Positions 346 to 61,465 of a DNA stretch of 64,000 bases are shown here, in pieces. The position numbers and the translations under genes were made by a program. Each line of letters starts with the position of its first letter. The stretch's first letter is position 1. Under the pieces are notes generated by a model, which saw only the letters and a program-made list of their open reading frames with translations, did no database searches and was not told the DNA's origin. Where the stretch lies: contig NC_135884.1 of assembly GCF_964194155.1 (NCBI RefSeq), positions 142,662,001 through 142,726,000 of the forward strand, given 5' to 3'. This DNA is from Cetorhinus maximus. Lineage: Eukaryota.

Positions 346-414
346 GTGGAAAGACTGGACGCCAAGGTTATTGGACCACTAAAGGCATATGGTCCGCTGA
401 CAAAATCCAAATGG
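346..414 (+). CDS. CIBAR2: CIBAR2-like exon (69 nt) [23 protein letters not shown]
   Basis: ttttag|GTG acceptor, TGG|gtattt donor; matches the FAM92 VERLEAKV..PLK.YG motif. Confidence 0.92.
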
Positions 415-59600: not shown

Positions 59601-61465
59601 TGCTAAAATAGCATAAAGAACAATCTCAGAGGAAAAGGTTAAGCCTGCGCAAGCTACTATCCCACATGGAGACAAATATTTGTAAATCTTCCAACAATTC
59701 TCATTTATTCTTGGAAAACGGCTACTGAGCATTGTTAGTGTTGGCATCTTGCGGTTTTTGTAGTTACGGATCTCGTTCGAAAGAGCGAGGGGAGGGAAAG
59801 TGCAAGGCCCATGTTAAACACCATGCATTTGAAGCTGAACGGAGATATCTGAGGCAGCTCCTGGAAGACGTTCACTAGAAGTGCCTGAAGCTACCTTCAG
59901 TCCAAATGCACAAGCCACATAGATGATGAAGTCAGTTTCAATCTTCCCACCAGCAGGGGGCAGTGTTACCTCAACTGTGGACTGCTGACCCTGTGAAATT
60001 AAATACAGGAGAGAAATTAGTACATCAGCACCAAATGCTGTCTTCCCACACCATTCTCTGCGCAACTGGGGCTTGAACAATGTTTAAGCCTTCCTGACAA
60101 TGTTGCGCTCAGATGACATAATACATCCCACCTGAATTTTAAGGTTTGCGTAAGAAATATGATTGTAACAAAGGCCTTGCCCTAATTGAGAAGCAGTTTG
60201 ATTAAATCATCCCCTCATCCACTTGCATCCATCGATTTATCTGTAAATATATTTTGATTCAAAGGATTTGAGGATTTGTGACATAATCAGGGGAGTTGCT
60301 TAGTGAAGCAGGTGAGCCCAGTATTGTGAAGGAGTAGAATTAACATCAATGGGGCCTAAGTAAACTCCTCCAAATTTGCAACCTTCCAACACCTCTGTGC
60401 TCCTCACATCCCTGATTTTCATCACCGGTCGTACCTTCAGCTGCCTAAGTCCTAAACTTTGGAATTCCCTCCTTAAACCCCTCTCTGCCTCTCTAGCTTA
60501 TTTAAGGCTCATCTTTGGCAAAGTTTTGGTCACCTGCCCTAATATCTCCTTATGTAGCTCAGTGTCAAACTTTTGTTTGATAATGTTCCTGTGAAGCATC
60601 TTGAGCTGTCTCACTATGTTAAAGGCGCTACACAAATGCAAGCTGTCGTTGTAGGGTCATCATCCTCCCTGGTAGGAGATGATGTGATTAAGCCTTGAGG
60701 ACATAACCTGGAGAAAGGGCATGTGGAATAATACACTTACAGTTAGCAGGGGCTGGTAAAGGTTCACTACACTACAGCTGTCACCTGGCGGGAGCAACAT
60801 CTTTCGCAGAACTGCGCACTGCCAGACCTTCTGTCCATTATTTTCAATGGAGTTCAGGGTTGGGTAGGTCTCCTGCCTCTGAATCAGAAGGTTGTAGGCT
60901 GAAGTCCAACTCTAGGGACAGGAGCACAAAACCTAGGCTGACACTCCAATGTCAGTACTGAGGCAATGTTCCATGGTCAGATGCAACGATAAACTGAGGT
61001 GGCATCCGCTCTCTCAGGTGGATTCAAAAGATTCCATGGCATTAGTTTGAAGAAGAGCAGGGCAGAGGGGGGGGGTGCACAGACAGGTGAGGGGAGGTGG
61101 AGTTCTGCCCCATGTCCTGGCTAATAAATATCCCACATCCAACAGCACCATTCGATTATCTGATTGTTGTTTGTGGCTTCTTGCTGAATAAACATTAGAC
61201 ATCACAACAGTGGCTACACTTCTCAAAGTACTTCTTTGACATTAAAGCACTTTCGAAAAGTCCCGAGGTGGTGAAAGGCGCTATGTAAATGCAAGTCATT
61301 CCTTCTGTGGCATGCACTTCCTTTGGATGTTTGGGGGCTGGACAGTAATAAGCAGTTACCCCCTACCTTGTACACAACGAGCCAGTAAACACCCGTCCCA
61401 AACGTGACGATGAAAAAGATGTTCGACAGGGCACCAGCAAAGTAGGCAAAATACTTCACAATCGT
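29598..61465 (-). CDS. TMEM67: Meckelin (TMEM67/MKS3)-family protein, C-terminal 437 aa in 12 exons; possibly a divergent paralog; 5' exons outside the window
   Basis: Twelve GT-AG exons (99,96,100,131,141,81,117,117,105,103,143,81 = 1314 nt) with compatible phases and no stops. Motifs [37 protein letters not shown] and terminal [10 protein letters not shown] are diagnostic of meckelin. Confidence 0.93.
29960..31070 (+). mobile_element. CR1 LINE fragment, AP-endonuclease domain
   Basis: [56 protein letters not shown] and GDSDHN motifs, with stops. Confidence 0.9.
31550..32150 (+). mobile_element. Old CR1 LINE 3' fragment
   Basis: Degenerate similarity to 9860-10500. Confidence 0.6.
32522..32664 (-). 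CDS. TMEM67: TMEM67-like exon (143 nt) (D)[47 protein letters not shown]
   Basis: gttttcag| acceptor in phase 1, |gtaagt donor; FS.VLYYG.E..LL.FD motif. Confidence 0.95.
32795..32912 (-). mobile_element. Penelope-like pLTR fragment
   Basis: aaaactcagcaggtctgacagcatctgtggagagggaaacagagtt...cttcttcagag, the same as the arms of 4662-7231. Confidence 0.75.
34085..34251 (-). mobile_element. tRNA-derived SINE head
   Basis: Minus strand has A box TGGCGCAGTGG and B box GGTTCAAATCC, followed by non-tRNA body and no proper acceptor stem. Confidence 0.65.
34854..34956 (-). CDS. TMEM67: TMEM67-like exon (103 nt) [34 protein letters not shown]
   Basis: ctctacacag| acceptor, |gtaagg donor, ends phase 1; MDY....KL.LE.IL..EF motif. 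Confidence 0.92.
35535..35968. mobile_element. Fold-back Penelope-like remnant with two outward-facing minimal hammerhead motifs
   Basis: Inverted arms about 35565-35674 and 35858-35968; motifs at 35585-35618 (-) and 35914-35947 (+). Confidence 0.72.
35585..35618 (-). ncRNA. Minimal type-I hammerhead ribozyme motif
   Basis: Minus strand TGTC-CTGATGA-GT-GCAAG-AT-GAAA-AGCT-TT-GACA: stem I TGTC/GACA, intact CUGAUGA and GAAA core, palindromic helix III. Confidence 0.6.
37726..38467. mobile_element. Probable solo LTR inserted in a GC-rich non-autonomous element
   Basis: AT-rich block of about 740 bp starting TGTCATGA and ending TCATAACT, flanked by ccttt / cccttt; GC-rich element sequence continues on both sides (37250-38720). 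Confidence 0.45.
39820..41050 (+). mobile_element. Family-A LINE 3' fragment interrupted by a Penelope-like pLTR (39952-40357)
   Basis: Collinear with 980-1820; the insertion is flanked by the duplication AATCTAATCA (39942-39951, 40358-40367). Confidence 0.88.
41583..41687 (-). CDS. TMEM67: TMEM67-like exon (105 nt) [35 protein letters not shown]
   Basis: cattaaag| acceptor, |gtgagt donor; KAY..MNKFL.SF..H motif. Confidence 0.9.
41875..42075 (+). mobile_element. Young-looking CR1 3' end
   Basis: ggctgtggaggccaggtcactgagtgtatttaagac...gatgggccgaatggcctaatttctgctcctatgtcttatggtctta tail. Confidence 0.85.
42105..42980 (-). mobile_element. Family-A LINE 3' fragment
   Basis: ORFs 42485-42856 and 42167-42469; reverse complement of about 955-1820. 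Confidence 0.9.
43580..45105 (+). mobile_element. CR1 LINE RT-to-3' UTR fragment containing a fold-back Penelope-like insertion (44301-44547)
   Basis: FLIYISDL...[31 protein letters not shown]; the inner palindrome is centred near 44405. Confidence 0.88.
45566..45682 (-). CDS. TMEM67: TMEM67-like exon (117 nt) [39 protein letters not shown]
   Basis: ctttttaccaaag| acceptor, |gtactt donor; NLC..RGL.PN.D.QTFE motif. Confidence 0.93.
46435..46551 (-). CDS. TMEM67: TMEM67-like exon (117 nt) [39 protein letters not shown]
   Basis: catccag| acceptor, |gtaatc donor; [11 protein letters not shown] motif. Confidence 0.95.
46920..47392 (+). mobile_element. Deu-domain SINE (SacSINE1-like), near full length
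   Basis: tRNA-like head (tggttcaattggtagcac...gggttcaagcccc), central ggtggatgtaaaagatccca.ggcacta...gcaaattggctgctgc.tt domain, L2-like tail. Confidence 0.8.
48119..48199 (-). CDS. TMEM67: TMEM67-like exon (81 nt) [27 protein letters not shown]
   Basis: tttttgcag| acceptor, |gtgagt donor; ERF.EDKI.QFVD.CS.SN motif. Confidence 0.94.
48695..49180 (+). mobile_element. CR1 LINE 3' fragment
   Basis: [24 protein letters not shown]...[17 protein letters not shown]. Confidence 0.85.
49740..49880 (-). CDS. TMEM67: TMEM67-like exon (141 nt) [47 protein letters not shown]
   Basis: taattccag| acceptor, |gtaaga donor; 47 aa with the V.G.KN.A...AP.S..LRY pattern. Confidence 0.9.
50855..52561. mobile_element. 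GC-rich non-autonomous element inserted into an L2 fragment
   Basis: L2 sequence stops at 50854 and resumes at 52562; only weak terminal complementarity. Confidence 0.5.
51410..52195 (+). repeat. G-rich tandem repeat (GGGGTGTAGTGGGGGGC, 17-18 bp unit) ending in a long poly-G run
   Basis: Directly visible; produces the spurious Pro/His/Thr-rich ORFs on the - strand. Confidence 0.95.
55150..56285 (+). repeat. 32-bp minisatellite (CCGACACTCCACCATTATAGTTACCAGAGACT)
   Basis: Near-identical units at about 55600-55950 with progressively diverged units on both sides. Confidence 0.96.
56588..56718 (-). CDS. TMEM67: TMEM67-like exon (131 nt) (E)[43 protein letters not shown]
   Basis: ctcttccacag| acceptor in phase 1, |gtaagt donor; hallmark [17 protein letters not shown]. 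Confidence 0.95.
56835..57480. mobile_element. GC/CpG-rich non-autonomous (Harbinger/MITE-like) repeat
   Basis: Begins gggcagaacttttc; shares ttcgg..ggcgggc.cgca and ggcct.ttaaggcc with 34313-34535; related elements near 2130-2848, 7400-8163 and 33290-34080. Confidence 0.5.
57490..57825 (+). mobile_element. Family-A LINE 3' UTR
   Basis: High similarity to 1490-1815. Confidence 0.88.
58548..58647 (-). CDS. TMEM67: TMEM67-like exon (100 nt) [33 protein letters not shown]
   Basis: tttctttcag| acceptor, |gtaggg donor, ends phase 1; IDWE.PKG motif. Confidence 0.92.
59895..59990 (-). CDS. TMEM67: TMEM67-like exon (96 nt) [32 protein letters not shown]
   Basis: tttcacag| acceptor, |gtagct donor; YV.CAF.LK motif. 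Confidence 0.9.
60860..61305 (+). mobile_element. Deu-domain SINE (SacSINE1-like)
   Basis: Collinear with 46920-47392. Confidence 0.72.
61367..61465 (-). CDS. TMEM67: TMEM67-like exon (99 nt) [33 protein letters not shown]
   Basis: ttttacacag| acceptor, |gtaggg donor; transmembrane helix of meckelin. Confidence 0.92.

Follow-up and report, generated by a model that had tools for sequence, protein, structure and literature searches.

Genes at the locus

The stretch analysed here, called the window, is 64,000 nt of Cetorhinus maximus DNA (contig NC_135884.1, positions 142,662,001 to 142,726,000 of the forward strand). It holds the 3' part of a meckelin-family gene on the minus strand and the 3' exons of a FAM92 gene on the plus strand. 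TMEM67, which encodes meckelin, is a core transition-zone gene that is treated as single-copy. The window gene is, with near certainty, a real, intact, pan-gnathostome paralog of it.

Exon models were built from six-frame searches and inspection of exon boundaries. The meckelin coding sequence runs on the minus strand from 61465 to 29598, where 12 intact exons, with AG/GT borders at 11 of 11 introns, splice to 437 codons and a stop. All 437 residues of the product coincide with the C-terminal end of RefSeq XP_078400739.1, annotated "meckelin-like" in Cetorhinus maximus, an identity that excludes a chance origin of the reading frame; the Carcharodon entry differs at nine residues. The remaining 5' ~490 codons are outside the window. 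The stop codons of the two genes face each other about 8.4 kb apart. An intact 12-exon meckelin-family coding sequence tail-to-tail with a FAM92B-like gene is what the original prediction, made from the sequence alone, had claimed, and the splice and the RefSeq identity bear it out; the 96-nt exon that it singled out is the second meckelin exon in the window and measures 96 nt. The meckelin features are listed below, with the evidence in brackets.

61367..61465, minus: first coding exon within the window, 99 nt (exon splice, tblastn)
59895..59990, minus: exon, 96 nt, encoding the 3-residue insertion characteristic of the paralog clade (exon splice, segment-length count)
58548..58647, minus: exon, 100 nt (exon splice, tblastn)
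56588..56718, minus: exon, 131 nt (exon splice, homology search)
49740..49880, minus: exon, 141 nt (exon splice, tblastn)
48119..48199, minus: exon, 81 nt (exon splice, tblastn)
46435..46551, minus: exon, 117 nt (exon splice, tblastn)
45566..45682, minus: exon, 117 nt (exon splice, tblastn)
41583..41687, minus: exon, 105 nt, segment divergent from human TMEM67 (exon splice, 7FH1 alignment)
34854..34956, minus: exon, 103 nt (exon splice)
32522..32664, minus: exon, 143 nt (exon splice, tblastn)
29598..29678, minus: last coding exon and stop codon (exon splice)
29416..29421, minus: candidate polyadenylation hexamer, the first after the stop (sequence inspection)

Two vertebrate meckelins

Homologs were collected with one meckelin exon as query (best 120 of 199 matches listed) and with the C-terminal region of a shark ortholog (best 120 of 898 matches listed, cutoff 543 bits). 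A search of 50% representatives together with 10 named top matches added the canonical meckelin of a sawshark and the outgroups amphioxus, tunicate, crinoid and limpet. Trees were inferred with FastTree (84 rows) and with IQ-TREE under LG+G4 (36 chosen rows, 888 columns) and under the mixture model LG+C20 (22 rows, 14 left out).

Vertebrate meckelins form one clade (support 100/99) that contains two gnathostome clades, paralog and canonical, each supported at 100/100 under both LG+G4 and LG+C20. Cartilaginous, ray-finned and lobe-finned members are found in each. The window gene sits in the non-canonical clade in the FastTree, IQ-TREE and mixture-model trees, and a tree that forces the shark paralogs together with shark TMEM67 is 320 log units worse and is rejected by the approximately unbiased (AU) test (p-AU 6e-133). 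The prediction that this is a second meckelin and not canonical TMEM67 is upheld by the three trees and this test; rather than a sole meckelin grouping with TMEM67, there is a separate clade, and the shark Pristiophorus has both copies. A duplication confined to sharks was also considered and is ruled out by the same p-AU of 6e-133.

Identities agree with the trees. Against full-length chondrichthyan "meckelin-like" proteins the window protein shows 79-93% identity, compared with 61-64% for turtle paralogs and about 52-56% for canonical meckelins of full length. Both genes are carried by at least 18 species among the matches listed, including the sawshark Pristiophorus, whose canonical meckelin lies at the base of the canonical clade; contig data for both copies, available for 16 of these species, place them on separate contigs every time. 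Of the proteins in which the segment encoded by the 96-nt exon is measurable, 87 of 89 paralog-like ones have 32-33 residues there and all 89 canonical-like ones 29-30, the classes being assigned by score ratio. Root-to-tip paths in the LG+G4 tree are longer in the paralog than in TMEM67, indicating faster evolution. The tree places the duplication after the divergence of amphioxus and tunicate and before the shark/bony-fish split; the lamprey sequence groups with the paralog at 91/87 under LG+G4 and 90/84 under LG+C20.

Anatomy of the paralog protein

The Pfam family Meckelin (PF09773) matches protein P0237, which is identical to the window product over 437 aa, with 889 bits against a cutoff of 25 and covers profile positions 4-825 of 825. 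From its sequence, the shark paralog appears collinear with human meckelin (7FH1), and the predicted hydrophobic stretches are found in the part encoded in the window. Three departures from human TMEM67 had been predicted in normally conserved places, and all are visible when the sevengill-shark ortholog is aligned to 7FH1.

Human meckelin is a dimer composed of an arch with 11 disulfides, a beta-rich domain, a membrane domain and a coiled coil, and its arches contact one another through the W112/R172 pair and G142/S159 (PMC8565905; statements from this and most papers cited below refer to the portions of them available). TMEM67 is cleaved by ADAMTS9 at K331/F332 and N342/F343; the uncut form signals via Wnt5a/ROR2, and the fragment starting at F343, which lacks residues up to 342, is enough for the transition zone and restores ciliogenesis and assembly of the MKS module (PMC12119803).

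Mapped onto this architecture, with chinchilla TMEM67 as a proxy for residue numbering, the paralogs have changed mostly outside the cell. Between the shark paralog and sturgeon or chinchilla TMEM67, identity is 38-40% in the cysteine-rich and beta-rich domains versus 47-65% in the membrane and cytoplasmic parts. Cysteines of the cysteine-rich domain number 22-23 in all 15 canonical proteins, 19-21 in each of the 26 anamniote paralogs and 10 in each of the 8 sauropsid ones; P0237 has 20 in this domain, which is outside the window, against the canonical 22 of the 11 disulfides. All 34 paralogs are without C253 and C268 and without the W112/R172 and G142/S159 contacts, and all 34 have F343, W668, G786, R820 and G821. 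By sequence, the putative ADAMTS9 motif keeps its spacing in the paralogs, with F343 in 34 of 34 and N342 in 8 of 10 chondrichthyans, F332 being Leu in sharks.

The paralog and TMEM67/meckelin/MKS3 thus share a Pfam match over the whole mature protein, collinearity with 7FH1, membrane and cytoplasmic motifs, the Phe at the second ADAMTS9 site and a CIBAR neighbour. They differ in that the paralog is about 60-70 aa shorter, forms a separate clade, has lost C253/C268 and the arch-to-arch dimer residues, has a 3-4-residue insertion after the second membrane helix and, in reptiles, a halved arch.

In all eight sauropsid paralogs (P0128, P0131, P0125, P0139, P0141, P0149, P0176, P0179) the arch is shorter by about 100 residues and 10 cysteines. 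This deletion, provided that the models are correct, goes back to one event at the base of the reptiles.

The CIBAR2 neighbour and conserved linkage

The 3' exons of the FAM92 gene span 346-21218 on the plus strand and match XP_078399117.1 ("CIBAR2-like"), to which the 208-aa splice agrees at 98.6% in alignment. Its FAM92 BAR domain (PF06730, 225 bits) also matches the CIBAR1 structures 8CEG and 9UHD. The resemblance to FAM92B that had been noted originally appears to hold: 12 of 12 matches are labelled CIBAR2-like or FAM92B, and the CIBAR1-type neighbour of canonical TMEM67 in sturgeon, a sequence close to mammalian CIBAR1 in alignment, is 53% identical to the product. The RBM12B/PDP1/CIBAR1 neighbourhood of canonical TMEM67 is not seen in the window, where the 3' neighbour of the paralog is CIBAR2-like. 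The CIBAR2 (FAM92B) features are as follows.

346..414, plus: internal coding exon, 69 nt, ending at 414 (splice, tblastn)
4406..4507, plus: exon, 102 nt, followed by a U12-type donor at 4508 (homology, splice, tblastn)
8219..8245, plus: U12 branch-point motif at 8219-8227 and 6-nt microexon at 8240-8245, Ser-Leu (inspection, tblastn)
12634..12738, plus: exon, 105 nt (tblastn)
13623..13736, plus: exon, 114 nt, end of the BAR domain (tblastn, structure match)
18017..18115, plus: exon, 99 nt (tblastn)
18342..18398, plus: optional exon, 57 nt, in RefSeq isoform X1 only (RefSeq comparison)
21084..21218, plus: last coding exon, acidic tail and stop codon (tblastn)

The exon end at 414, the microexon and the optional exon are new relative to the original gene model. 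Both Cetorhinus RefSeq CIBAR2 models skip the 6-nt microexon at 8240-8245. Its Ser-Leu is present in four other shark proteins (P0222, P0225, P0227, P0231), and human CIBAR1 carries two residues where it falls. The optional 57-nt exon, seen also in two other sharks, encodes a basic stretch right before the acidic tail. The codon at the exon end, 412-414, is Trp, and the residue is Arg in the six other chondrichthyan CIBAR2 proteins compared; this is probably a lineage-specific CpG change.

In all 9 sharks for which the location of the paralog and of CIBAR2 is available, the two lie on one contig. Their accessions or locus tags are adjacent in Mustelus, Heterodontus, Chiloscyllium plagiosum and Scyliorhinus torazame, and non-adjacent in Cetorhinus, Rhincodon and Stegostoma. 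In fused gene models, canonical TMEM67 follows a CIBAR1-type sequence on the same strand in sturgeon and precedes a PP2C-domain gene in goby.

For the comparison with frog, we take the genes on the GSE1/KIAA0513 side to correspond to human 16q23-24 and those on the RBM12B side to human 8q22, and the two to be one paralogous pair of regions. One Xenopus laevis scaffold carries IRF8, COX4I1, GINS2, GSE1, FAM92B, a gene named "TMEM67", KIAA0513, FBXO31 and JPH3; FAM92B (plus strand, 1232005-1253285) and "TMEM67" (minus strand, 1260908-1290710) are tail-to-tail as in the window (PMC5245798). KIAA0513 and GSE1 had been expected to flank the second meckelin, and they do so in this frog. The other Xenopus TMEM67 is head-to-head with RBM12B, with FAM92A1 215 kb off and KIAA1429, ESRP1 and CCNE2 on the same scaffold, of whose 34 table rows 30 were covered (PMC5245798). 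The meckelin between FAM92B and KIAA0513 is, with high confidence, the frog ortholog of the window gene.

A genome duplication very likely separated TMEM67 from the paralog. The split would predate the divergence of sharks and bony fishes and would have occurred jointly with that of CIBAR1 and CIBAR2.

Taxonomic range and probable loss

Among the matches listed, the paralog is found in sharks, rays, chimaera, bichir, sturgeon, paddlefish, gar, bowfin, tarpon and eels, and in caecilians, salamanders, frogs, turtles, crocodilians, lizards and snakes. Full-length paralogs of frog and skink are also encoded on unnamed Logan contigs that measure about 3 kb and, given the many exons of the gene, are most likely spliced transcripts. 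In the ESM Atlas the only matches were to "meckelin" clusters.

No bird, mammal, cypriniform or euteleost paralog is among the best 120 of the 898 matches (cutoff 543 bits) or among the matches listed from the 50% representatives, a library that conceals close members. The anchovy protein P0322 shows that weak-scoring paralogs exist. Humans presumably have a single meckelin gene. The Xenopus table assigns both frog meckelins one human identifier (PMC5245798), consistent with this. Mammals have, in all likelihood, lost the paralog, with canonical TMEM67 covering both jobs.

Three observations concern individual models. P0322, from the clupeiform Coilia grayii, is a divergent, poorly modelled paralog that may mark decay of the gene in teleosts. 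Turtle paralog models P0032 and P0027 begin with an N-terminus like that of class C G-protein-coupled receptors (with an NCD3G match below cutoff in P0032), which suggests a receptor gene just upstream, joined through mis-annotation. The "meckelin-like" protein of the pipefish Stigmatopora (P0263 cluster) scores nearer to canonical TMEM67, so that this label does not always denote the paralog.

Induction in frog multiciliated cells

The original prediction guessed at a role in motile cilia. Support comes from Xenopus laevis, in which cells expressing Multicilin were compared with cells expressing the Notch intracellular domain (tables of PMC5245798). At 9 h the FAM92B-linked meckelin is induced 55.4-fold (adjusted p 6e-8) and FAM92B 60.8-fold (the copy next to that meckelin) and 42.4-fold, whereas canonical TMEM67 beside RBM12B is at 1.35-fold (adjusted p 0.75); FAM92A1, at 0.54- and 0.80-fold, shows no induction (PMC5245798). 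MKS-module genes are induced as well: CC2D2A 12.5-fold, MKS1 10.1-fold, TCTN2 8.7-fold, TMEM216 8.6-fold and TMEM231 3.6-fold, B9D1 not being found in the portion of the frog table searched (PMC5245798). With five genes of the module rising and canonical TMEM67 flat, it is the canonical copy that stands apart, its position being taken by the paralog.

The same paper includes the FAM92B-linked meckelin in its core list, for both 6 h and 9 h, and in the overlap of that list with an Rfx2-knockdown list. The name TMEM67 is also in the overlap with mouse Foxj1-positive airway cells, which fits a single mouse gene covering the multiciliated role, and is absent from the overlap with the zebrafish Foxj1 list in the tables at hand (PMC5245798). 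The available main text of PMC5245798 does not mention tmem67. In mouse and human, ciBAR2 is confined to multiciliated cells (PMC11612972), and non-cleavable TMEM67 harms the motile cilia of mouse ependyma (PMC12119803).

A proposed meckelin for the multiciliated-cell gate

The reading that we favour, with some confidence, is that the window gene belongs to a second vertebrate meckelin that likely arose by genome duplication and likely provides multiciliated cells with the meckelin of their ciliary gate. After the duplication, the copy beside CIBAR2 would have come under the multiciliated-cell programme, as CIBAR2 did, retaining the gate-building half of the protein while its arch relaxed; mammals and birds would have dropped this copy later. 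By analogy with the frog, it is fairly likely that the Multicilin programme activates the paralog and CIBAR2 in shark multiciliated cells. We lean slightly towards a division of labour in which the paralog would enter the MKS module of motile cilia, at their base, as the cleaved C-terminal form of TMEM67 does in mammals, and the canonical protein keeps primary cilia and Wnt5a/ROR2 signalling.

A broader version of this proposal seems to us evenly balanced. The gate would have been split in early vertebrates between a ubiquitous CIBAR1-TMEM67 block, serving primary cilia and Wnt, and a CIBAR2-"TMEM67b" block, serving multiciliated transition zones. By shedding the Wnt-binding arch and keeping the gate, the paralog would let duplication do the job that ADAMTS9 cleavage does in mammals, and the "TMEM67" of the Xenopus core multiciliated list would be the paralog.

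Several points weigh against the favoured reading. The frog comparison is one data set, and at 3 h the 25.4-fold rise of the FAM92B-linked meckelin (canonical copy, 0.87-fold) has a p of 0.018 and an adjusted p of 1 (PMC5245798). The support consists of mRNA induction, which is distinct from localisation of the protein at the transition zone, and orthology of the frog gene is argued from position and orientation. Residues linked to Wnt5a binding are mostly preserved in shark paralogs, Q376 and R440 in 10 of 10, with M252 and L349 conservatively changed, so that a loss of Wnt signalling is not demonstrated. The paralog is dispensable in birds and mammals, whose multiciliated cells have no listed paralog. 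Placement of the lamprey sequence outside both clades (p-AU 0.08) or with TMEM67 (p-AU 0.15) is not rejected. An older Chiloscyllium punctatum draft has paralog fragments and FAM92B on separate scaffolds, which a newer assembly unites. Evidence of expression in sharks is thin. Reads of four runs matched to the window are dominated by repeats, with no spliced joint among the rows listed, and no RNA data set was among those listed for window positions 44000-50000. In run X1, taken to be RNA by guess, all 8 listed ends of the pieces over four exons fall 0-2 nt from the edges predicted for those exons, a weak hint that the paralog is spliced in a related organism.

Alternative explanations

The paralog could instead be an ancient but broadly expressed, partly redundant backup for TMEM67, its induction being specific to the frog or a by-product of adjacency to CIBAR2. 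It does adjoin a multiciliated-cell gene, its next neighbour KIAA0513 is up 2.9-fold at 3 h (p 0.02, unadjusted; PMC5245798), and it evolves faster than TMEM67 and has seemingly been lost more than once. Genes lying tail-to-tail, however, have no common promoter, and most of the 25 listed genes of the scaffold are unmoved (GSE1, 0.54-fold; PMC5245798). A mere backup would also not explain why canonical TMEM67 stays flat while five MKS-module genes rise, and we regard this explanation as unlikely.

That the largest changes are extracellular, and that the W112/R172 and G142/S159 dimer-contact residues are missing from the aligned paralogs, would suit a protein acting mainly outside the gate, whether as a heterodimer partner or decoy tuning the Wnt5a/ROR2 signalling of TMEM67 or in another type of cilium, for instance sperm or sensory cilia. 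Such a role is improbable: in frog, the induction of the paralog goes along with that of the MKS module and is not shared by canonical TMEM67 (PMC5245798), and binding as a partner or decoy is purely putative.

As to origin, a local or segmental duplication of the meckelin-CIBAR pair in early vertebrates would accommodate the differing orientation of the blocks, tail-to-tail here and on the same strand in the fused sturgeon CIBAR1-TMEM67 model, and the fact that the two frog scaffolds share two gene pairs only in the data at hand. The timing nevertheless fits genome duplication, the copies occupy different contigs in every species with data for both, and the frog neighbours correspond to human 16q23-24 and 8q22, taken to be a paralogous pair of regions; a local or segmental origin is improbable. 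Last, the notion that the window gene is the ordinary, sole and merely divergent TMEM67 of the shark, for which it speaks that the canonical copy of Cetorhinus maximus was not retrieved and that the best 120 matches of either search include no canonical copy from a cartilaginous fish, can practically be set aside given the basal canonical meckelin of the sawshark, the trees and the AU test, and the far closer match of the window protein to chondrichthyan "meckelin-like" than to canonical proteins.

Relation to described genes

The paralog, part of a retained CIBAR-meckelin block, is present in databases under generic names and is apparently undescribed in the literature. The window gene is one of several automatic "meckelin-like" annotations (XP_078400739.1, XP_038662201.1, XP_018113472.1), entries that give neither a paralog name nor a function. 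Some paralogs are labelled "meckelin" or "Transmembrane protein 67" (Xenopus, alligator, gar UniProt W5LXJ9), a labelling that confuses the two genes. Name searches and an inspection of titles and the beginnings of abstracts turned up no account of a second vertebrate meckelin; subscription papers, and a catshark supplement under an identifier, could list the gene. The portions of PMC4092220 and PMC9844136 available mention none. The names TMEM67, meckelin, FAM92 and CIBAR are absent from four supplementary files of PMC10208646 and from one short supplementary file of PMC13450315, whose full ohnolog tables could list the gene.

CIBAR1 and CIBAR2 (FAM92A and FAM92B) have a known ubiquitous versus multiciliated split (PMC11612972), which the meckelin pair mirrors and to which it is linked; mammals retained both CIBARs but, on present evidence, one meckelin. 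Unlike frog TMEM67, the frog counterpart of the paralog is induced by Multicilin. The paralog also resembles the "elusive genes" (PMC10208646) in being an ancient paralog of sharks, amphibians and reptiles that is apparently missing in mammals and birds.

TMEM67 is the most frequent cause of Meckel syndrome (PMC8565905). A second meckelin with a cell-type-specific counterpart in frog offers a natural separation-of-function variant for asking how the gate and Wnt roles of TMEM67 are divided and whether motile and primary cilia have different gates. The multiciliated skin of Xenopus is a common ciliopathy model, in which the role of the paralog can be tested now. The published core list maps the FAM92B-linked gene to human TMEM67, so that knockdowns and cross-species comparisons may target the wrong copy.

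Other features of the window

Rfam gave no match in the window. Intronic minisatellites lie at 5293-6243 (period 32), 51411-52155 (period 18) and 55224-56193 (period 32) and account for long Pro- and Gly-rich open reading frames. Short, broken open reading frames resembling pieces of reverse transcriptase or endonuclease of long interspersed elements, presumably CR1-like, occur at 698-1198, 9623-10078, 21993-22337, 30125-30937, 42167-43174 and elsewhere. Very high-copy interspersed repeats are seen in the read-depth table of the window.

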